A DNA stretch of 64,000 nucleotides from an uncultured Thermoleophilia bacterium (GTDB lineage: Bacteria; Actinomycetota; Thermoleophilia; UBA2241): positions 1,623-65,622 of the forward strand of contig CAVYDV010000004.1 of the NCBI GenBank assembly GCA_963767505.1, given 5' to 3'. The position numbers were made by a program, and so were the translations under genes. Positions 19,235 through 33,706 of the stretch are shown piece after piece (within the stretch, counting starts at the first letter, position 1; every line of letters begins with the position of its first letter). Below the pieces are notes generated by a model. It had not been told where the DNA came from. It made no database searches and saw only the letters and a list, made by a program, of their open reading frames with translations.

Positions 19235-20500
19235 TGACCTGCACCCCTGAGATCGGTCCACCCGCAATGTAGGGTTTCGCGACCGATGAAGGAGGCAGAT
19301 CATGCCGAAGAAGACCTACCGACCCGAGGAGATCATCGCCAAGCTGCGTCAGGCCGAGGTGCTCATCGGCCAGGGCAGGAAGATGCCGGAGGTCGTCAAG
19401 GCCCTCGGCGTCCACGAGATCACCTACTACCGCTGGCGCAAGGAGTACGGCGGTCTCCAGGTCAGCCAGGCCAAGCGCCTCAAGGATCTCGAGCGCGAGA
19501 ACGCCCGACTGCGCAAGGCGGTCTCGGACCTCTCCCTTGACAAGGTCATCCTGCAGGAGGCGACGCGGGGAAACTTCTGAGCCCCTCGCGGCGACGCAGA
19601 TGCGTGCGCGCAGTCTGTGAGGGGCTCAACGTCTCCGAACGCCGTGCCTGCAAGGCTCTCGGTCAGCATCGCTCCAGCCAGCGTCAGCACCTGACGCTGC
19701 GCCCTGACGAGGACGCCCTCACGGCGGCCGTCGTCGGTCTGGCGCGCAGCTTCGGCCGCTACGGCTACAAGCGCATCACCGGCCTCCTGCAGATGGCCGG
19801 CTGGAACGTCAACCAGAAGCGGGTGCAGCGCATCTGGCGCTCCGAGGGCCTCAAGGTGCCAGCGAAGCAGCCGAAGCGAGGTCGCTTGTGGTTGAACGAC
19901 GGCTCCTGCATCCGTCTGCGGCCGGAACGCAAGAACCACGTCTGGGCCGTACGACTTCGTCGCCGAGAAGACCGACGACGGTCGCGCTCTGAAGCTGCTC
20001 ACGGTGATAGACGAGCACACGCGCGAGTGCCTGGCGATCGTCGTCGCCAGAAGGATCACGAGCCACGAGGTGCTGATGACGCTCTCCGACCTCTTCCTCC
20101 AGTACGGCGTCAAGGAGCACATCAGATCAGACAACGGGCCAGAGTTCGTGGCCAAGGCAGTGCGCGAGTGGCTCGCCGATCTCGGGGTCACGACCCTGTT
20201 CATCGAACCGGGCTCCCCTTGGGAGAACGGCTACATCGAGTCGTTCAACGGCAGGCTCAGAGACGAGCTCTTGAACGGCGAGATCCTCTCCACGCTCAAA
20301 GAGGCACAGATCCTGATCGCCGACTGGCGGCGCCTCTACAACGGCCTGCGTCCGCACAGCTCACTGGGCAACAGACCGCCGGCACCAGAGACGATCGCCT
20401 TCCCCGGCTTCTCGCTCTCTGACTTCGCGCCTCCGAAACCTCTGCCGGAGGTGGCCCAAGCACCAACATGGGAAGTGGACCGACGAATGGGGTCCGGTCA
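19235..20500 (+). mobile_element. IS3-family insertion sequence (about 1.27 kb)
   Basis: Left end TGACCTGCACCCCTGAGATCGGTCCAC and right end GTGGACCGACGAATGGGGTCCGGTCA form imperfect terminal inverted repeats (TG...CA). The interior has an OrfA/OrfB organisation. Confidence 0.8.
19302..19580 (+). CDS. IS3 OrfA (HTH transposase subunit)
   Basis: MPKKTYRPEEIIAKLRQAEVL...ITYYRWRKEYGG...LERENARLRKAV contains a helix-turn-helix plus a leucine zipper. Confidence 0.85.
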   Translation: MPKKTYRPEEIIAKLRQAEVLIGQGRKMPEVVKALGVHEITYYRWRKEYGGLQVSQAKRLKDLERENARLRKAVSDLSLDKVILQEATRGNF

Positions 20501-20513
20501 ACATAGGAGGTAG
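19604..20513 (+). pseudogene. IS3 OrfB (DDE/rve integrase), internal frameshift near 19945
   Basis: The frame of ORF 19604 reads ...RKNHVWA, then the homologous sequence continues in the frame of ORF 20004 (YDFVAEKTDDGRALKLLTVIDEHTRE...SDNGPEF...PWENGYIESFNG). This is in addition to the normal OrfA/OrfB frameshift. Confidence 0.7.
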
Positions 20514-20524
20514 AGAGCCCGCGT

Positions 20525-21283
20525 CTACTTGGCCATGTAGCCGCCATCAACGGTCAGGGTCTCACCGGTGACGAACGATGCCGCATCAGAGCACAGCCAG
20601 GCGACGGCTTGCCCGATCTCCTCGGGCTCGCCGATGCGTGCTACGGGCGTGTCCGCAGTCAGGGCGTCCTGCATCTCCGGATTGGCCGCGACTATCTGGT
20701 CGACCATCGGGGTCCTGATGACGCCCGGACACACTGAGTTCACGCGAATCCCCGCCTGTGCATACTCGAGAGCGACGGCCTTGGTGAGACCGTTCACACC
20801 GTGCTTGGAAGCCACATAGGGACTCAGGTTCCTGACGCCGGTGAGGCCCGCGATGGATGCCGTGTTCACGATCGCTCCCCCACCCCTGGCGAGCATCCGC
20901 GGGATCTCATACTTCATGCACAGGAAGACGCCCTTCAGGTTGACGGCGATGACCCGGTCGTAGTCCTTCTCCGAGTAGTCGGCTGCCGGCCCCATAGGGC
21001 CGTCGATGCCCGCGTTGTTGTGCGCACAGTCGAGCCCTCCGAAGGTCTCCACCGCGAAGTCGACGGCAGCCGCTACCTCACCTGCCTGCGAGACATCACA
21101 GGCGACGAAGGCGGCCTCTCCTCCTGCGCTCCTGATCGCCTCGACAGTCGCAGCACCGCCATCGGCGTCCACATCCGCAGCCACGACCTTCGCGCCCTCT
21201 CGCGCGAAGACCCCTGCCGTGGATCGGCCTATCCCGGAACTGGCGCCTGTGATCAGAGCGATCTTGTCTTCTAGAAGTCCCAT
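20525..21283 (-). CDS. SDR family oxidoreductase
   Basis: Motifs: TGASSGIG, NNAG, YVASKHG. A GGGAGGGG RBS precedes ATG 21283. Confidence 0.9.
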   Translation of the reverse strand: MGLLEDKIALITGASSGIGRSTAGVFAREGAKVVAADVDADGGAATVEAIRSAGGEAAFVACDVSQAGEVAAAVDFAVETFGGLDCAHNNAGIDGPMGPAADYSEKDYDRVIAVNLKGVFLCMKYEIPRMLARGGGAIVNTASIAGLTGVRNLSPYVASKHGVNGLTKAVALEYAQAGIRVNSVCPGVIRTPMVDQIVAANPEMQDALTADTPVARIGEPEEIGQAVAWLCSDAASFVTGETLTVDGGYMAK

Positions 21284-21495
21284 CTTCCCCTCCCTCGACT
21301 TGGCGACAGCGAGGCGGCGCATTGCCGCGACGCTTCCGCCTTCGGTCATCGTCGTTCCAGCGCTCGTCGACGCTCCAGTCCCGAAGACACATCGAGTGGA
21401 CCTGTCGCTGCCGGTGACGTGCCAGTCTCGTGATCGGAGACCACGCTGCCATGTCCTCGCGACGCTGCCCTCCCTTCGGTCTAGACCCCCTGATA

Positions 21496-21509: not shown

Positions 21510-22107
21510 GCATATCACCTTCAGGAGCGGCTACAAGGTCAGGCGTCCAGAGCCTCTCGGTCACGCCTTTGCGACGCAGGCGATCCCAGCTCTCTCATAG
21601 CTCCGTGCAGCCGAAGTCGGATGCGCGGATGGTGAGTACCGTCTCACGCCGAAGCGGGTCGGTCCCTTACCGGCGGCGGCCTCCCGGACGCCTCAGCGCG
21701 AACGGCTGTGCGGACCCATTGCCGATGTGCGCCAGCTCAGCCAACAGCAGGAGTAGCTGCCATATGCCCATAGTTGCGCGTAGACCAACTGTGTTCTGAC
21801 CAAACGAGCTGTAGAGGCGTCGGCGCGGTCGGCGCGGAGGCGCTCATCTCCGTGGTGTGGATACGGGCCCGGCCACGGTATGGGCGTTGTCGCCGGGTGA
21901 CCCGTGAGCACCGCGAGGCCCGCGTGAGCGAAGCGAGTCAGGTGCGCAACGGTGGGCATCGGAGCGGCGCGAAGCGAAGGACGAGAAGGAGGGACGTGAG
22001 GGATGGACGACAGTGACGTCGGATGCGCTCGTCCAACGGGTTCCGTGGTCGGCGCGGAGCCGGCGAAGAAGGACGACGCACAAGCCACCGAACGGAAGGA
22101 GACCAGT

Positions 22108-22716
22108 GTGAGCAGCATCATGGTCGGCCGCAAGGCGCCGGACTTCGTCGCGCCCGCCTACCACAAGGGCGCCTTCACCCAGGTCAAGCTCTCCGACTAC
22201 CTGGGCAAGTGGGTCGTCCTGTGCTTCTACCCGGGCGATTTCACCTTCGTCTGACCGACCGAGATCTCGGCGGTCGCCGAGAAGTACGACGAGTTCCAGG
22301 CGCTGGGCGTCGAGGTGCTGTCGGCCAGCGTGGACTCGCAGTTCGTCCACAAGATGTGGGACGAGAACGAGCTCTCGAAGATGGTGGAGGGCGGCGTGCC
22401 GTTCCCGATGCTCGCCGACGCGGCGGGCCATCTGGGCACCGCCTACGGCGTCTACGACGACGAGGCCGGCGTAGACGTCCGTGGCCGCTTCATCATCGAC
22501 CCGGACGGCGTGATCCAGGCCATGGAGGTGCTCACGCCGCCCGTGGGCCGCAGGGTCGAGGAGTCGCTCCGGCAGATCCAGGCGTTCCAGCACGTGCGTA
22601 CCACGGGGGGCAAAGAGGTCACGCCCTCCGGCTGGGAGCCCGGCAAGAAGGTCCTCAAGCCCGGCCCCGACCTGGTGGGCCGCGTGTGGGAGGTCTGGCA
22701 GCCGGCGGATGCCTAG
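22108..22716 (+). CDS. prxU: Peroxiredoxin (AhpC/Prx1 type) with in-frame TGA at the peroxidatic-Cys codon; candidate selenoprotein
   Basis: An AAGGAG RBS lies 6 nt before GTG 22108. ORFs 22003-22254 and 22315-22716 share one frame. The junction reads [19 protein letters not shown], against the family motif FTFVCPTE. Confidence 0.7.
22253..22275 (+). promoter_or_regulatory. SECIS-like hairpin starting at the G of the UGA
   Basis: GACCG-A-CCGA [GAUC] UCGG-CGGUC forms 9 bp with one bulge and a 4-nt loop. Confidence 0.4.
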
Positions 22717-22919: not shown

Positions 22920-23198
22920 GACCGGGGGCTTCGACACCCCTGCGGTCCACCACCGAGTCGTGCTCTGCGCGCCCTTCGAACGGACCCCGACACGGCCCGG
23001 TGCGACCATTCTGCAGCCCAGATCCACGCGACTGGATAGGAGCGGGGGGGCGGAGGGGAGCGACTGGACCGCCCCACCAGCGCCGGAGACGATCGCCTGG
23101 CCGGGCTTTGCGCTCTCTGACTGCGGGCCTCCGAAAGCTATGACGGAGGCGGCTCTGGGACGAACATGCGAAGTGGACCGACGAATGGGGTCCGGTCA
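22920..23198 (+). repeat. Left arm of a 279-bp perfect inverted repeat (nested IS right-end remnants)
   Basis: It is the reverse complement of 32155-32433, and the encoded peptide strings are identical. It ends with the IS3-type terminus ...GTGGACCGACGAATGGGGTCCGGTCA. Confidence 0.85.
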
Positions 23199-23220
23199 CT
23201 CGGCGGCCGCGTCCCCTCAC

Positions 23221-23604
23221 TCAGTGCCGGCAGGCCCCCTCAAGCCCGACCACCGGCAGGTCTCCCCGCACGAAGGCTGTCGCAGCCGTCTGCACGTCCG
23301 GACCAGTCCCGGCGTGCACCGCGATGCCGACCTGGCCGAAGCCCATGAGCGGCCGGCCGCCGATGCCGTCGACGACGATGGCGTCGACCGTGTTCTCGGC
23401 CAGGAGAAGCACTGGCCGCATGCAGCCGCCCTCCTCATGTGGAGTGTTCTGCACGACCTCGACGCCGGCCACGTCGCCGTCGACGACCTCGACCACGGTG
23501 AAGCAGTCGCAGCGGCCGAAGTGCCCTGACCGTCGCGCCTCGAGACCGCCCGGAGCTTCCGAGGGGATTGCGATGCGCACCGTCGTTCCGTTGAGTTCAC
23601 TCAT
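23221..23604 (-). CDS. NifX/NifB-like (dinitrogenase FeMo-cofactor-binding domain) protein 1
   Basis: VRIAIPSE...SGHFGRCDCFTVVEV...DAIVVDGIGGRPLMGFGQVGIAV matches the family pattern. Confidence 0.8.
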   Translation of the reverse strand: MSELNGTTVRIAIPSEAPGGLEARRSGHFGRCDCFTVVEVVDGDVAGVEVVQNTPHEEGGCMRPVLLLAENTVDAIVVDGIGGRPLMGFGQVGIAVHAGTGPDVQTAATAFVRGDLPVVGLEGACRH

Positions 23605-23670
23605 GTGGATCAGACTCCGTTCCTGGTTGGTGGATCGATATCGTGGGGCCGACGGTCGCGGTGAAGGCCG

Positions 23671-24168
23671 TCAGGCGCTGGCGTGACCCGGACCGCGGCC
23701 GCGCTTCTGGCGACCGGCGCCGGCGCCCCGGCTTCCATGTCCCATCCCGCAGTGCCCTGCCGCATCCCAGCAGGTGCCCACCTCGGCAGAGCCGCAGGAT
23801 GGGCAGGCGGCCGGTGGCGGGTCATCTGGTGGGGCGCCCCAGAGGGAGCCGCAGGAGGCGCAGCAGAGCTGCCGCGGCTCGATACGGTACTGACCCCCAC
23901 CGATGAGGATCGCCTTGCCCGCTACGAGCGCCTCTGCGACCTTGGCTCTGCCCCGCTCGAGCACGCGGCCGACGGTCTGGCGCGAGATGCCCATGGCTTC
24001 GGCCGCCTGCTCGTGGCTCAGCCCGTCGAGGTCGACGAGGCGGATGGCCTCCAGCTCGTCGACCGTCAGCTGCAACTGCTCGAGCTCGCGGCCCGGCACG
24101 CCCGCCGGCTTGAACAGGGTCGCCCGCGGCACGCCGCCGACGGCGCGCTCAATCGGTGGGCGGGGCAT
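23671..24168 (-). CDS. DUF134 (UPF0251) putative DNA-binding protein with C-terminal Zn ribbon
   Basis: MPRPPIERAVGGVPRATLFKP...LTVDELEAIRLVDLDGLSHEQAAEAMGISRQTVGRVLERGRAKVA has a sigma-70 region-4-like HTH. The Zn ribbon is CASCG...CPSCG. An AGGAGA RBS is present. Confidence 0.85.
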   Translation of the reverse strand: MPRPPIERAVGGVPRATLFKPAGVPGRELEQLQLTVDELEAIRLVDLDGLSHEQAAEAMGISRQTVGRVLERGRAKVAEALVAGKAILIGGGQYRIEPRQLCCASCGSLWGAPPDDPPPAACPSCGSAEVGTCWDAAGHCGMGHGSRGAGAGRQKRGRGPGHASA

Positions 24169-24186
24169 GTCCGTCTCCTGTGGTTC

Positions 24187-24200
24187 CTAGCATATGCTCA
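24187..24200. promoter_or_regulatory. Operator-like site CTAGCATATGCTCA (12 of 14 match to TGAGCATATGCTCA)
   Basis: It lies about 20 nt upstream of the DUF134 start codon, between the RG-rich ORF and the DUF134 gene. Confidence 0.45.
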
Positions 24201-24224
24201 TCCTAGAGGGGGCGAGGTCCGGCT

Positions 24225-24650
24225 TCAACACGCCGGCTTCTCGCTGTCTACTGTGTGGTCGGCCGTGTCGTGCGACGCCGGGAGAGCCCGGGGTGCAGGC
24301 TGGGTCGCACCCACTTCGATCGTCCTTCTCTGCGCCGGCACCTCGCTTGGCGTCGGCGGATCCAGCCGCAGGTAGGCGCCGCCCAGGCGCCGGGCCGGTT
24401 CACGACGGCTCAGCGCCAGGCGCAGTGCGGTCCGGCGCAGCAGGGGCCGCGTCAGTCCCTCGGCATCGCGGATGTCCTGCACGACGTAGGCGCCGGCCGC
24501 GACCAGGGTCCGGGTCGCTGTGCGCCCGCCCAGGCCGCCCTCGCTGCTCCGGGCATTGCCCCAGCGACCGCTACGGCCTCGCCCGGTGCCCTTGCATGGT
24601 GGCCCTCCCCGTCGTTGTCGGCGGTACCCGGGCCTTCCGTCTGCGTGCAT
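24225..24650 (-). CDS. Hypothetical protein with Arg/Gly-rich N-terminus (141 aa)
   Basis: An AGGAGGAAGG RBS overlaps the end of the upstream gene. The N-terminus is MHADGRPGYRRQRRGGPPCKGTGRGRSGRWGN. No domain was recognised. Confidence 0.5.
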   Translation of the reverse strand: MHADGRPGYRRQRRGGPPCKGTGRGRSGRWGNARSSEGGLGGRTATRTLVAAGAYVVQDIRDAEGLTRPLLRRTALRLALSRREPARRLGGAYLRLDPPTPSEVPAQRRTIEVGATQPAPRALPASHDTADHTVDSEKPAC

Positions 24651-24667
24651 GGCTGCTTCCTTCCTCC

Positions 24668-25024
24668 TCATGTCCAGTGACCGCTGACGGTGGGTGCCTC
24701 GACCGCTTCGAGCTCGCCGCGCTCGAGAGCGGCCAGGGCGTCGTGCGCGGTCACTCCGTTGCTCGTCTGGTAGATGGCGATGTCCGCAGCGGCGAGCACC
24801 CGGTGCGCGTTCGGCCCGACATTGCCGGTGATGACCGCCCCGGCGCCGTGCGACGCCACGGCGTTGCCCGTCTGGATGCCGGCGCCGCCGCTGGCGACCG
24901 CGTTCTCGCGAGCCTGCCACTCGCCGGTCTCGGTGTCAGCGACGATGAACCAGCGGGCGCGGCCGAACCTGGGGTCGACCAGGGACCCGATATCGTTGCC
25001 CTGTGTACTGATGGCTACTCTCAT
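24668..25024 (-). CDS. NifX/NifB-like (FeMo-cofactor-binding domain) protein 2
   Basis: MRVAISTQGNDIGSLVDPRFGRARWFIVAD...AGAVITGNVGPNAHRVLAAADIAIY. The start overlaps the radical SAM stop (ATGA). Confidence 0.85.
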   Translation of the reverse strand: MRVAISTQGNDIGSLVDPRFGRARWFIVADTETGEWQARENAVASGGAGIQTGNAVASHGAGAVITGNVGPNAHRVLAAADIAIYQTSNGVTAHDALAALERGELEAVEAPTVSGHWT

Positions 25025-25986
25025 GGCTGCTCCTCTATTCGATGCTCGATGGCGGCGGGCGCCGCCAGGTAGAACGATTCGCCCTCGTGGGTGTGCAGCT
25101 CAACGACGCCTTGAGTCACCAAGGCAGTGGCCGCCTTGAGCGCCTCGCCGTGGTGAAGGCCCAAGCCAGCGGCGATGTCGGCTGTGGTGCACGGACGCCG
25201 CGAGAGCAGTGCCAGGATGTCGGCACTGTGGACGGCTCGGCTGCCAGCGGCGGGCAGGGTGTCGGCGATCACCTCGGCGTGCGGGGTGAAGAGACCGGCG
25301 AACTGCTGCAGAAGGCCCTCCGCGACTGGCGTCACGAACGACTCCGCCGGGGGGCGCACCGCCGTGTTCAGCTGGATCCGGTCGGGGGTGATGCGCGCTG
25401 CCAGCTCCGCGAGCCGCTGCACCTCGGACAGCAGCCCGGTGACGCCGGCGAGCAGCATGACCTCGAGCCAAAACTGCCCGGAGAAGTTCTGGCGGAAGGC
25501 GATCATGCCGTCGACCACCTCGTCGAAGCGCAGTGCTGCGTGAGGACGGTTGATGAGCTGGAACAGGCCGCCATCTGGGGCGTCGAGTGACGGCAACACG
25601 ATGTCGGCGGCCGCCAGTCCTCGGCGCACCGTCGGGTGGCTGAAGAGCGACCCGTTGGTGACCACCGCCACCGGCACGTCCGTGAGCCCCTTGATGCCGG
25701 CGATCACTTCGCCGATCCCCGCATGCAGGGTCGGTTCACCCGATCCGGCGAGAGCGATGGCGTCAGGCTCCGAATCGAGCTTGGCGCGCACCTGAGCGAC
25801 AACGTCTGGTGGGTCGACCCAACGCTGCCTGCGCACCGTCTTGCACGTAGTACGGCCGAGCTGGCAGTAGATGCAGTCGTAGGTGCACGTCTTGAGGGGC
25901 ACGAGGTCGACGCCGAGGGAGCGCCCCAGGCGACGGGAGGGCACCGGCCCGTAGACAAGCTGTTCTGTGCTGACGGCGAAGGGCAT
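25021..25986 (-). CDS. Radical SAM protein
   Basis: YGPVPSRRLGRSLGVDLVPLKTCTYDCIYCQLG carries the CxxxCxxC motif. GSGEPTL is also present. Confidence 0.85.
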   Translation of the reverse strand: MPFAVSTEQLVYGPVPSRRLGRSLGVDLVPLKTCTYDCIYCQLGRTTCKTVRRQRWVDPPDVVAQVRAKLDSEPDAIALAGSGEPTLHAGIGEVIAGIKGLTDVPVAVVTNGSLFSHPTVRRGLAAADIVLPSLDAPDGGLFQLINRPHAALRFDEVVDGMIAFRQNFSGQFWLEVMLLAGVTGLLSEVQRLAELAARITPDRIQLNTAVRPPAESFVTPVAEGLLQQFAGLFTPHAEVIADTLPAAGSRAVHSADILALLSRRPCTTADIAAGLGLHHGEALKAATALVTQGVVELHTHEGESFYLAAPAAIEHRIEEQP

Positions 25987-25989
25987 CCT

Positions 25990-26886
25990 CTACCCCGTCT
26001 GACTGTGAGCGGAGTGCTCGGTCGGTGTGAGCAGCGGCTCGATGGCGGCCGAGAACGCCGCGGTCGCCGGCGATCCAGAGAACGCCTGCACGAAAGGTAC
26101 GCCGCACTCTCCGGCCTGCACGACCGTCGGATCCATCGGGATGCGGCCGAGGAACGGCACCCCGGCAATTGTGGCCATGGTCTCTGCGCCGCCGCTCTGA
26201 AAGATGTCGGTGGTCTCGCCACAGTGTGGGCAGACGAAGCCGCTCATGTTCTCGATCACGCCCAGCACCGGGAGATCGCGCGTCCTGCAGAAGGCCAACG
26301 CCTTGCGCACGTCGCTGACCGCCACGCTCTGTGGGGTGGAGACGACTACGGCTCCCACTCCTGCGTCGAGCATCTCGACCAGCGCCAGTGCCTCGTCCCC
26401 AGTACCGGGAGGAGCGTCGACCACGAGGCAGTCGATGTGGCCCCAGTCGAGCCTGGCGAGCATGTCGCGGATCGCCGAGTACTTGCGCGGGCCGTGGCAC
26501 ATGACAACGGCGTCCTCCTCGGGCAGAAAGAACTGGATCGACATGGCCCACAGGATCTCGCTCGCCTTGGCTCGGGCAACGCCGCTGACGTGCCCCGGCC
26601 GAGGCGCATAGTCGATCCCCAGGAGACCCGGGACGCTGGGGCGGTAGAGGTCGACATCGAGCAGACCGACGCGCCTCCCGGCGTCCGCCAGCGCCGTGGC
26701 CAGGTTCAACGCCACGGTGCTCTTGCCCACTCCGTCCTTGCCCGACAGCAAGAGCAGCTTCTGGCGAACGCTCAGCAAGCGGAAATGTAGCTCGACCTGT
26801 CGTCGGCGGGGATCACCATCAACATGGGCGCGGCCCCCATCGTGCCCCTCGAGTCCTGCCTTGCGGGTCACGTGGCCTTCACGCAT
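25990..26886 (-). CDS. Mrp/NBP35 (ApbC-like) Fe-S cluster carrier ATPase
   Basis: Features: deviant Walker A SGKDGVGKST, VVDAPPGTGD, and GVIENMSGFVCPHCGE. The start is uncertain. Confidence 0.85.
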   Translation of the reverse strand: MREGHVTRKAGLEGHDGGRAHVDGDPRRRQVELHFRLLSVRQKLLLLSGKDGVGKSTVALNLATALADAGRRVGLLDVDLYRPSVPGLLGIDYAPRPGHVSGVARAKASEILWAMSIQFFLPEEDAVVMCHGPRKYSAIRDMLARLDWGHIDCLVVDAPPGTGDEALALVEMLDAGVGAVVVSTPQSVAVSDVRKALAFCRTRDLPVLGVIENMSGFVCPHCGETTDIFQSGGAETMATIAGVPFLGRIPMDPTVVQAGECGVPFVQAFSGSPATAAFSAAIEPLLTPTEHSAHSQTG

Positions 26887-27784
26887 TGAGCACCTCTCCT
26901 TGCGGGGACGGCGAGAGCGATGCGCCCACCGCTCCCCAGAGCTTCGTGATCTCCTCCGCGGCGCGCCCGCCGTGGGCGATGACGTCGGTGCCCGCTACTT
27001 GGGCATGTGTCACTGCGGGGTCGTACTCGACAGTGACGACGAACTCCGCTCCGGCGTCGGACGCCTCACCAGAGATGCGCGCGCCGAGCTCCCGGTTGAG
27101 ATCTGCCTTGTTGATGCAGACGGCGAACGGCAGCCGGAACTGCCGCACCACCTGCAGCACGCGGTCGAGGTCGTGGCGACCCGAGACCGTCGGTTCGGTG
27201 ACCACCAGCACCAGGTCGGCGCCGGCCAGCGAGGCGATCACGGGGCAGCCGATGCCCGGCGATCCGTCGACGATGACGAGCGGCAGTCCGCGCTCCTCGG
27301 CCACGCTGCGAGCCTCGTTGCGTACGAGGGTCACGAGCTTGCCGGAGTTGTCCTCGGCGACCCCGAGACGAGCGTGGACGAGCGGCCCGTAGCGCGTCTC
27401 GGATGTCATCCAGGCACCGTTGATGACGGGCTCCATGCGGATGGCGTCGGCGGGGCACACGTGCCGGCAGAGCTCGCAGCCCTCGCAGGCGAGGGCGTCG
27501 ATCGAGTAGTCGCCGTCGGCGCTCCGCACGGCCGCGAAGCGGCAGACCTCGGCGCAGCGGCCGCAGGCGGTGCAGGCCTCAGGGTCGATGATCGCCCTTC
27601 GGCGGCCGCTGAACTCATGTTCCTTCCCGAACTCGGGCCCCAGGACCAAGTGCAGGTCGGCGGCGTCGACGTCGCAGTCGGCGAGCACGGCGCCGCCCGC
27701 CAGCGCCGCGAAGGCGGCCACGATGCTCGTCTTCCCGGTGCCGCCCTTGCCGCTGATGACGACCAGCTCGCGCGGCGGGCTCAT
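26879..27784 (-). CDS. MinD/ParA-type P-loop ATPase with inserted 2x[4Fe-4S] ferredoxin domain (COG1149 type), copy B
   Basis: Features: SGKGGTGKTS, then CTACGRCAEVC and CEGCELCRHVCP inserts, then DGSPGIGCPV. Confidence 0.85.
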   Translation of the reverse strand: MSPPRELVVISGKGGTGKTSIVAAFAALAGGAVLADCDVDAADLHLVLGPEFGKEHEFSGRRRAIIDPEACTACGRCAEVCRFAAVRSADGDYSIDALACEGCELCRHVCPADAIRMEPVINGAWMTSETRYGPLVHARLGVAEDNSGKLVTLVRNEARSVAEERGLPLVIVDGSPGIGCPVIASLAGADLVLVVTEPTVSGRHDLDRVLQVVRQFRLPFAVCINKADLNRELGARISGEASDAGAEFVVTVEYDPAVTHAQVAGTDVIAHGGRAAEEITKLWGAVGASLSPSPQGEVLNA

Positions 27785-28665
27785 GAGGCCACCTCTGCCG
27801 CTCGGGCGGCTGATTCGATGCGCGTCCAGGCAGCGCTCAGCTTCTCTCCCAGACCCTCGACCGAGTCGAGTAGCAGATGGCCCTGGGCGTAGGTCTCGGC
27901 GATGCGTCGCTCGTAGGGCAGCTCGAGAACGATCTCGATGCCCTCGTCGGCGCAGTACGAGTACACTCGATCGTCTCCCAGACCGGCGCGGTTGACGACA
28001 ACGACGCAGCGCAGCCCGAGCGCGCGCACCATCTCTACCGCAAGCTCGAGGTCGTGCAGACCGAAAGGCGTCGGCTCGGTGACCAGGACTACCAGGTCAG
28101 AGTCGCGTACCGCTGCGATCACGGGGCAGGAGGTGCCCGGTGGCGCGTCGATCAGTACGACGTCGACGCTGTCGTCGTCGGCAGCTGCCAAGGTGGCCCT
28201 GGTCGTGGGTACGGCCTTGGCTTCGCCGACTGCGAGCACCCCGCTCACGAGCGGGAAGACAGGCTGGCGCGGGGGAGTCGCCATGCCGTGCTCGACCACC
28301 CCGGTCTCACGCTCTTCCTCATGGATCGCGTTCTGCGGACACAGCAGCGCGCACGCTCCACAGGAGTGGCAGAGCTCCGGGAACACGAGGACCGTGGAGC
28401 CGACGACGGCGATGGCGTTGAAAGCGCAGACCTCGCCGCACGCCCCGCAGCCGTTGCAGCGCGCCTCGTCCACCTCGGGCACCAGGACGCGCACTGGCTC
28501 GCGGTGTTCGATCTCGGGATGCAGGAAGAGGTGACAATCCGGCTCCTCGACATCGGCGTCGAGGAGCTGCACGGCCAAGCCGCGCGCGGAAAGCAGCGCC
28601 GCGAGGTTGGTGGCGAGCATCGTCTTCCCGGTGCCGCCCTTGCCGCTGGCGATGGCGATGCGCAT
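27781..28665 (-). CDS. MinD/ParA-type P-loop ATPase with inserted 2x[4Fe-4S] ferredoxin domain (COG1149 type), copy A
   Basis: Features: SGKGGTGKTM, CNGCGACGEVC, CHSCGACALLCP, DAPPGTSCPV. There is a 4-nt overlap with the next gene. Confidence 0.85.
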   Translation of the reverse strand: MRIAIASGKGGTGKTMLATNLAALLSARGLAVQLLDADVEEPDCHLFLHPEIEHREPVRVLVPEVDEARCNGCGACGEVCAFNAIAVVGSTVLVFPELCHSCGACALLCPQNAIHEEERETGVVEHGMATPPRQPVFPLVSGVLAVGEAKAVPTTRATLAAADDDSVDVVLIDAPPGTSCPVIAAVRDSDLVVLVTEPTPFGLHDLELAVEMVRALGLRCVVVVNRAGLGDDRVYSYCADEGIEIVLELPYERRIAETYAQGHLLLDSVEGLGEKLSAAWTRIESAARAAEVAS

Positions 28666-32126: not shown

Positions 32127-33706
32127 TCACACGCGAGAAGAAGCCGGACCCCACTGACCGGACCCCATTCGTCGGTCCACTTCGCATGTTCGTCCCAGAG
32201 CCGCCTCCGTCATAGCTTTCGGAGGCCCGCAGTCAGAGAGCGCAAAGCCCGGCCAGGCGATCGTCTCCGGCGCTGGTGGGGCGGTCCAGTCGCTCCCCTC
32301 CGCCCCCCCGCTCCTATCCAGTCGCGTGGATCTGGGCTGCAGAATGGTCGCACCGGGCCGTGTCGGGGTCCGTTCGAAGGGCGCGCAGAGCACGACTCGG
32401 TGGTGGACCGCAGGGGTGTCGAAGCCCCCGGTCGGGTGTGGCTCCAAGCAGTGCACAGCGAGCGGCCGACGCTGTTCGAAGGTCTGATGCGGCCTAATCT
32501 CGCTGTAGAGCGAGAGGTAGGCTGCGACCTCCTCGGCGAGGTCGGCGGCGGTCTCGATCTCGCGCTGGTAGAGGTGCTCGTACTCGAGCGAGCGGTTGAA
32601 GCGCTCGACCACGCCGTTGGTCTCGGGAGCGTAGTGGCGGGTGATGTGGCGATAGTCGAAGCCCTCGAGGCTGATGCGCCCGCCCTCACGCACCCGCCGC
32701 GTGACCACCTCACCCTCGGCGGGGTGCTGCTCGCCGCTGGCCTTGGCCTCGACCGCTTCGGCTTCAGGCTGCCGTGCCACCGGCTGCTGCCCTCTCGCCG
32801 CCAGCTCGAAGCGCTTGATCGGGGCCACCATGCCGATGCCCTGATGGGGCCGCTCGCAGTTGTAGTGGGCCACCCAGGCGTCGAGCTCGGCTTGGGCGGC
32901 CTCTAGCGAGGCGAAGGTACGACCTTCGAGGAACTCACTCCGCAGCGTCTTGTGGAAGCGCTCGACCTTGCCGGTCGTGGTCGGGCTGTAGGGGGCGGTG
33001 AGCAGATGACGGACGCCGTGCTCTTGGCAGATGCGGTCGAAGAGCACCTCGCGGCGGTGGGCCCCGAAGCGCCCCGTGAAGACCTTGCCGTTGTCGGTGA
33101 GGATCTGCTCGGGGACGCCGTGACGTTGCATGGCTGCACGCAGCGCCTCGCAGACCGGTCGCGTGGTGGCGCGCTCGACGAGCTGGGCCGAGACGCAGAA
33201 GCGCGAGTGGTCGTCGATGCCGGAGACGAGCTTGAGCTCGGATTCGTCTGAGAGCTTGACGCCGCCCATCACGTCCATCTGCCAGAGCTCCATGGCCTTG
33301 AGGCGCTCCCAGCGGCGGTAGTCCTCGCGCTTGCGACGGCGCTTCTGGGGATCGATGAGGCGATGGCGCACCAGGCAGCGATAGATCGAGGAGCGCGAGG
33401 GTTGGCGCTCGAGCTCCTCCCGCGCCAGGTAGTGGGCGATCGTGCGCGGCCCCCAGCGCGGGTGGGCGAGGCGCATCTCGACGATGCGCGCCTCGACCGC
33501 CGGCGGCATGCGGTGCGGGCAGCGCCCGGTCGCGAAGAGGCGTCGGCCAGACCGGCGATGCCGCTACGCGCGTAGCGTCGCAGCCAGCGGTGCAGCGTCT
33601 GGCGGGTGACCCCGTAGCGGCCGGCCACCGCGACCACGCTGTTGCCCGCGAGGACCTCGAGGACTGCCTTGTGGCGCTGTTCCACGACTCCCAGCTCGAT
33701 GAGCAT
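32127..33706 (-). pseudogene. IS481-family transposase, frameshifted and chimeric
   Basis: The N-terminal HTH (MLIELGVVEQRHKAVLEVL...TRQTLHRWLRRY, ORF 33269-33706) is in a different frame from the catalytic part (MPPAVEARIVEMRLAHPRWGPRTI...DNGKVF...TTGKVERFH, ORF 32127-33509). Confidence 0.7.
32155..32433 (-). repeat. Right arm of the 279-bp perfect inverted repeat
   Basis: It is the reverse complement of 22920-23198. Confidence 0.85.

Follow-up and report, generated by a model that had tools for sequence, protein, structure and literature searches.

An intact prxU gene with an in-frame UGA as its probable selenocysteine codon in an uncultured Thermoleophilia bacterium

In a stretch of 64,000 nucleotides from an uncultured Thermoleophilia bacterium (contig CAVYDV010000004.1; the whole of this 64-kb stretch, with a GC content of 67%, is referred to here as the window), the reading frame of a peroxiredoxin is interrupted by a single TGA. 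Is this locus a broken gene, or is the UGA read as selenocysteine (Sec)? An earlier note on this DNA favoured a peroxiredoxin of the PrxU type with a UGA-encoded Sec, and this central reading is now supported by a curated family model, by conservation of the TGA, by purifying selection and by a covarying selenocysteine insertion sequence (SECIS). The locus at 22003-22716 on the plus strand is very probably an intact prxU gene, i.e., one for a thioredoxin-fold peroxiredoxin of the AhpC/Prx1 type in which Sec84 (U84), encoded by UGA, is the peroxidatic residue.

One gene across an in-frame UGA

The long frame of prxU (22003-22716, plus strand) comprises 237 codons followed by a TAG stop (22714-22716), with Sec as codon 84. 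The open reading frames (ORFs) 22003-22254 and 22315-22716 had been described as lying in the same frame and as separated by the TGA only. This holds: the TGA at 22252-22254 is the sole interruption of the frame, which is open again from 22255, even though the second ORF is listed as beginning at GTG 22315. The earliest possible start is ATG 22003, because there is an in-frame TGA at 21997-21999, and a Shine-Dalgarno (SD) sequence, GGAGG (21988-21992), is situated 10 nt ahead of this ATG. A motif of this kind precedes the ATG of the long form in 71 of 81 orthologous loci, and homologs are mostly 233-243 residues long. The start had previously been placed at 22108; the longest ORF runs from ATG 22003 and includes a Cys-bearing extension that is found throughout the family, 22108 being a conserved internal start.

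For the Pfam search of the read-through protein, Cys was put in place of the stop; the domains found were AhpC-TSA (E=4.9e-40) and then a 1-cysPrx_C tail. The same protein (237 residues) scored 410.1 bits against NF040737 (peroxi_PrxU), an equivalog model of NCBIfam with a cutoff of 270, and the match covered residues 6-234 and profile positions 2-231 of 233, whereas the AhpC equivalog TIGR03137 gave 198.4 bits, which is under its 272-bit cutoff. Therefore, the gene is a member of a curated and named family. Human Prx2 was the best match among solved structures (E=4.9e-51), and bacterial AhpC structures also aligned end to end. As had been proposed, the TGA takes the place of the Cys in the active-site motif FTFVCPTE (here FTFV-TGA-PTE), and it aligns with the peroxidatic Cys of human Prx2. 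The motif PxxxTxxU is present (P77, T81, U84), as are all of the residues specific to PrxU: VGCARPTG at 6-13, LCFYP at 73-77, and EVTPSGW at 205-211. With Thr207 at the resolving site, and with its score for TIGR03137 below the cutoff, the protein falls outside the typical 2-Cys peroxiredoxins and AhpC. Among prokaryotic selenoproteins, the TxxU peroxiredoxin stands before the predicted families in the published listing and has a primary reference of its own; it goes back to PrxU of Eubacterium acidaminophilum (Sohling 2001, as cited in PMC13188914 and PMC9312934). In surveys of bacterial selenoproteomes it is among the commoner families (PMC1794560, PMC1088965).

The conservation of the TGA was assessed by a scan of GTDB in which each species was represented by one genome. 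This gave at least 576 related stretches, and the best 80 of them were analysed. It had been suggested that homologs be aligned to see whether they carry Cys or TGA in this column, and the answer is TGA in all 80 of the best genome loci and in all six metagenome loci (contigs with protein P0025), i.e., in 86 of 86. The orthologs are 65-88% identical over residues 1-236; the closest are from uncultured Thermoleophilia metagenome-assembled genomes (MAGs; 88, 86 and 83%) and from Coriobacteriaceae bacterium EMTCatB1 (79%). The best 80 come from Thermoleophilia, Coriobacteriaceae, Synergistaceae, Thermodesulfobacteriota, Calditrichota, Chloroflexia, Gemmatimonadales, Acidobacteriota, Gammaproteobacteria and others. 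The statement in the earlier note that peroxiredoxins with Sec occur in a few anaerobes thus understates their distribution. In other homologs, the Cys forms, the Sec column has TGC or TGT.

The sequence downstream of the TGA has evolved as coding sequence. Compared with one close relative (locus L007), there are 8, 5 and 30 differences at the first, second and third codon positions, amounting to 28 synonymous and 12 nonsynonymous codons; compared with another (locus L010), there are 10, 8 and 47, amounting to 38 synonymous and 15 nonsynonymous codons. The differences past the TGA are mainly synonymous and in the third position, and therefore the 3' part is translated. Upstream of the TGA, the differences from the closest relatives are distributed over the codon positions in a like pattern. 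Under a codon model trained on other genes of the window, the TGA at 22252-22254 is the only one in the 64 kb that is both preceded and followed by a coding signal (0.84 and 0.90 bits/codon). Its presence here goes far beyond chance.

TGA is the usual stop in the window, ending 26 of the 42 confident ORFs, and a reassigned genetic code is therefore ruled out. Public protein collections often give Trp for the Sec codon of PrxU: in the 120 best database proteins, the Sec column holds 93 W, 24 C, 1 G and 1 S, so that 93/120 of the best matches appear to be mistranslated. In protein P0025 (89 member sequences, 97 contigs), the predicted W is TGA in the DNA of the six loci read, and so the W residues in public predictions of PrxU are most likely artefacts of gene calling. 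The present locus should be annotated as a single selenoprotein gene of 237 codons (or 202 codons, from the internal start), rather than as two fragments or a pseudogene.

The SECIS hairpin

The core hairpin of a bacterial SECIS (bSECIS), UCUCGGC-GGUC-GCCGAGA, is situated at 22265-22282 on the plus strand. It has 7 bp and starts 10 nt after the UGA; its loop is GGUC (22272-22275), the distance from UGA to loop is 17 nt (22255-22271), and the hairpin alone has a free energy of -11.4 kcal/mol. Covariation was assessed by aligning, without gaps, the 51 nt that surround the TGA in 79 distinct orthologs. In these, 95.5% of the cells of the hairpin are paired and 87 cells are compensatory, values that were matched by none of 500 shuffles; controls in which the partners were slid pair at 37-72%. 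The compensatory changes are at synonymous sites, and two of the pairs display all four Watson-Crick types: one joins the wobble base of an Ile/Val/Leu codon to that of a Glu/Asp codon, and the other joins the wobble base of a Ser codon to that of the second Ala codon. Of the 79 orthologs, 59 have GGUC as the loop and 20 have AGUU; the G-U at loop positions 2-3 never varies.

The hairpin is degraded in the Cys forms. All seven pairs are found in 70 of 87 Sec-type loci, the locus in the window included (7/7), as against 3-5 of 7 in four Cys-form homologs (TGC/TGT). The closest Cys form (L087:434-1147, protein P0001; 84% identical, TGC, high GC) retains 5/7 pairs and is an example of a switch between Sec and Cys with decay of the SECIS within the same clade. 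The published criteria for a bSECIS are a loop of 3-9 nt with G in its first two positions and then G or U, an upper stem of 4-16 bp, 16-37 nt from the UGA to the apical loop, and a free energy of -7.5 kcal/mol or lower (PMC13188914). The hairpin at 22265-22282 agrees with every one of them, having a 4-nt loop, 7 bp, a loop that starts with GGU, a spacing of 17 nt, and -11.4 kcal/mol. Rfam at its gathering thresholds returned no SECIS and no other family for the whole window, and a permissive Rfam search of 22200-22360 gave no match. The comparative set yields a clean SECIS for the PrxU family that is defined by covariation.

A different hairpin had been put forward as SECIS-like, at 22253-22275, with 9 bp, a bulged A and a GAUC loop. 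It exists as a local fold (-12.9 kcal/mol), but it does not belong to the conserved element, and the SECIS is the covarying hairpin at 22265-22282 instead. The two overlap by 11 nt and are mutually exclusive. In the 79 orthologs, 77.8% of the cells of the 22253-22275 hairpin are paired; 500 shuffles average 77.3%, and 76 of them attain 77.8%. The covariation score of this hairpin is 0.076, compared with 0.069 in shuffles, and it forms in full nowhere but in the window and the closest relatives. Its loop starts 8 nt after the UGA, under the 16-37 nt of a bSECIS, and a ribosome with the UGA in its A site would cover it. As a SECIS it was rejected, because it does not covary and because its distance from the UGA is too short; GC-rich codons happen to form it in this lineage.

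Given the conserved, covarying hairpin and the established mechanism of bacterial SECIS elements, SelB carrying Sec-tRNA(Sec) would bind the GGUC-loop hairpin at 22265-22282 and deliver Sec at the UGA in place of termination.

Redox residues and the internal start

If the UGA is read as Sec, how would the enzyme be recycled? By homology, the selenolate of U84, in an active site composed of P77-x3-T81-x2-U84 and R160, would reduce H2O2 or organic hydroperoxides and would itself be oxidized to a selenenic acid. The usual context of the C-terminal resolving Cys, EVCPA.W, had been noted to read EVTPSGW here, and so it does (22615-22635, plus strand; residues 205-211), with Thr207 in place of Cys. 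Of the related Sec loci, 70 have Thr at this site, 7 have Cys and 4 have Met. Without the canonical resolving Cys at the C-terminus, recycling would have to use another thiol. It had been concluded that the enzyme relies on its single Sec; this is doubtful, as two other Cys residues, Cys8 and Cys74, are invariant in the family.

Cys8 (codon TGC, 22024-22026) lies in the N-terminal motif VGCARPTG (22018-22041, plus strand), after which a disordered, charged linker leads to the core. Most homologs carry an N-terminal extension of about 35 residues with [VI]GC[AG][RK]PTG, and none of the 87 Sec-type loci lacks Cys8. Within the codons of the motif, positions 1 and 2 are fixed while position 3 takes all four bases, and therefore the extension is translated and is selected as protein. 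Cys74 (codon TGC, 22222-22224, plus strand) lies in LCFYP, 10 residues before Sec, where canonical Prx1/AhpC proteins have Phe, and it aligns with Phe in Prx2. Alignments of 76-77 family proteins show no variation in its column, and 117 of 119 database homologs have Cys there. The idea that a locus has either the N-terminal Cys or a retained Cys at the canonical resolving site, and never both, was rejected: the 7/7 loci with the canonical Cys keep the N-terminal one. One PrxU-like gene (L091:967-1566, protein P0004) has Ser (TCA) at the peroxidatic site, has Ile for Cys74 and has lost the extension, and this joint loss of three redox residues hints that they may work together.

The selenenic acid could be resolved by Cys8 on its flexible tether, which is the route that we prefer, by Cys74, or directly by a reductant of the thioredoxin or glutaredoxin type; a reductant of the thioredoxin type would then finish the cycle.

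The extension is bordered by a second signal for initiation. An internal ribosome-binding site, GGAAGGAG (22094-22101), is followed by a 6-nt spacer and GTG 22108 (22094-22110 in all, plus strand), the start of the canonical peroxiredoxin core; an in-frame ATG follows at 22120. In 79 of 84 loci, the 40 nt that precede the core contain a strong SD pentamer, compared with 16.7% of control windows from the same genes. The spacing from the SD to the next in-frame start is 5-9 nt in 57 of the 79 loci, being 6 or 9 nt in 51. In the window (22094-22122) and at the equivalent sites in loci L001-L090, the conserved SD is AAGGAGG with ATG or GTG, and the residues encoded across the site vary (KE, QE, RE, EE, GG) while GGAG stays. 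In a test defined by position, GAG makes up 82% of the Glu codons at -5 to -2; its share is 44% in the core and 30% elsewhere in the linker, with a Fisher p of about 1e-13 to 1e-19 that is overstated, the loci being phylogenetically related. The internal SD is also found in Cys-form homologs that have the extension.

Thus, one mRNA, with SD-preceded in-frame starts at ATG 22003 and GTG 22108, probably yields both a long form that bears Cys8 and a short form that consists of the core only. The purified, native PrxU of E. acidaminophilum is reported to be about 203 residues long with Sec as residue 47, which would correspond to the internal start at 22108 and not to the frame of 237 codons. A more general proposal is tentative, and we regard it as a possibility with somewhat less than an even chance: that PrxU genes, the present one among them, give two nested products, and that a tethered N-terminal Cys (maybe with Cys74) would replace the lost resolving Cys by way of a selenenylsulfide with Sec84. 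If true, the N-terminal Cys extension and the internal start could explain how a peroxiredoxin without the usual resolving Cys is recycled. The curated model NF040737 does span the N-terminal extension. In the searchable literature, which gave only citations of Sohling 2001, no description of the arrangement with two products and an N-terminal resolving Cys was found.

Genomic context, rival explanations and known systems

In the window, prxU is flanked by a divergent SDR gene (20525-21349, minus strand) and by a cluster on the minus strand (23221-28665) that comprises two NifX-like (Nitro_FeMo-Co) genes, a DUF134 gene, a radical-SAM gene, a gene for an Mrp/NUBPL-type ATPase, and two MinD-ferredoxin (MinD-4Fe4S) genes. 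Homologs of genes from this cluster adjoin prxU in a few unrelated loci (L018, L029, L040, L074 and L087). An IS3-type insertion sequence (IS) at 19302-20513 consists of an HTH_Tnp_1 ORF and an rve ORF. Just downstream of prxU, a fragment of 299 nt (22920-23218) is 97% identical, in inverted orientation, to the end of the element at 32127-33509, which is a second transposase gene situated 9 kb from the fragment. There is also a repeat of 125 nt with 83% identity (20376-20500 and 23074-23198). Synteny with the closest relatives is not kept, and so the context gives no functional clue.

In Firmicutes-like contigs with P0025, a gene for a glutaredoxin of 87 residues lies divergently upstream of prxU (L001:939-1202, with equivalents in L002-L005), and this glutaredoxin could serve as the reductant partner there; no glutaredoxin gene adjoins prxU in the window. 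In Desulfoferula mesophila (L088:6061-6723), an AIRS/AIRS_C gene, of the SelD, ThiL or PurM type, is found by a Cys-form homolog of prxU, across recG.

Several observations weigh against the reading of the locus as an intact gene decoded with Sec. The gene sits among IS copies and fragments, in a synteny that is not common to its closest relatives, and a recent acquisition of prxU is possible. ARAGORN detected no tRNA-Sec in the 64-kb window or in 60 related loci, of which the absence from the window is the point that counts here; a Pfam scan of 40 window ORFs found no SelA, SelB or SelD domain; and a scan of the whole window revealed neither another candidate for read-through of TGA nor a further selenoprotein gene. 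At the level of the RNA, the local fold has no extra stability compared with dinucleotide shuffles (z=-0.35), and the minimum-energy fold of the single sequence favours the competing hairpin at 22253-22275 over the SECIS. As to the protein, an AlphaFold2 model of the closest Cys homolog has a predicted local distance difference test (pLDDT) score above 90 in the core, below 50 in the linker (residues 19-34) and of about 64 in residues 1-18, so that the monomer model places the N-terminal segment without confidence. The putative functions of Cys8 and Cys74 are suggested by conservation, as is initiation at both starts.

The rival explanation that survives best accepts that the gene is intact and holds that the host is unable to decode Sec, after a recent acquisition of the gene or a loss of the machinery, so that translation would end at codon 84, leaving a gene without function. 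Such a history would fit the IS3-family elements and fragments on either side, the gene neighbours not shared with the closest relatives, and a window without sel genes, tRNA-Sec or another selenoprotein gene. Yet it is very unlikely, since the ORF and the SECIS are intact, with 7/7 pairs, and both halves are strongly coding under a model trained on other genes of the window, which argues for long residence. In addition, the closest relatives (the Thermoleophilia MAGs and the Coriobacteriaceae bacterium) keep the TGA, the SECIS and the purifying selection, and the absence of sel genes is to be expected, as 64 kb is only a fraction of a genome.

Alternatively, the TGA might be an error of sequencing or assembly, or a recent nonsense mutation of a Cys codon. 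TGA is one base from TGC or TGT, and a close Cys-form homolog with TGC does exist (P0001/L087). Against this, Cys forms are without the full hairpin that the window has, the best 80 genomic orthologs, including the four closest, all have TGA, and an error would have to strike precisely the Sec column of a gene that bears a SECIS, which makes this explanation highly improbable. A third rival, in which UGA specifies Trp or Gly (genetic code 4 or 25) or is passed by near-cognate read-through, is barely conceivable: the W and G of the public predictions are its one attraction, whereas the W of P0025 is TGA in every locus read, these loci fail to translate to the query under table 11, TGA ends most confident ORFs of the window and has a coding signal on both sides just once, an enzyme with Trp or Gly as its peroxidatic residue would be inactive, and the SECIS covaries.

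This leaves the reading of the locus as prxU with a Sec codon. The window holds no Sec machinery, so that decoding by the organism is inferred. Possession of this gene makes the host, a high-GC bacterium with Thermoleophilia MAGs as its nearest relatives in PrxU, a probable decoder of Sec.

How does this system compare with those already known? The Prx-like thiol:disulfide oxidoreductase selenoproteins (UxxC/UxxU) and Prx-SUH also have the AhpC-TSA domain (PF00578) with Sec, but their motifs are UxxC/UxxU or CxxU, while that of the window protein is TxxU, without a Cys within three residues of Sec. The hairpin resembles the bSECIS consensus (bSECISearch; the prototype being fdhF of E. coli) in its GGU loop start, its 7-bp upper stem, its 17-nt spacing and its energy below -7.5 kcal/mol, and the GGUC loop also occurs in the SECIS of fdhF. 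It differs in being short and wholly within conserved coding sequence (codons I-S-A-V-A-E-K), and no conserved lower stem was found for it. The typical 2-Cys peroxiredoxins (human Prx2, bacterial AhpC) share with the window protein a core that is about 50% identical, FTFV-C/U-PTE, Thr81 and Arg160; unlike them, it has Sec for the peroxidatic Cys, Thr for the resolving Cys of EVCPAGW, Cys74 for Phe, and an N-terminal extension of 35 residues with a Cys. The closest likeness is to PrxU of E. acidaminophilum (Peptoclostridium), which has the same AhpC/Prx1-type fold with Sec at the peroxidatic position of PxxxTxxU, likewise has no canonical C-terminal resolving Cys, and has a SECIS hairpin directly downstream of the UGA, the host in the present case being a high-GC (67%) bacterium and not an anaerobe of the Clostridium type. 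The gene in the window is thus an ordinary, intact and fresh instance of a well-known, curated family of selenoproteins.

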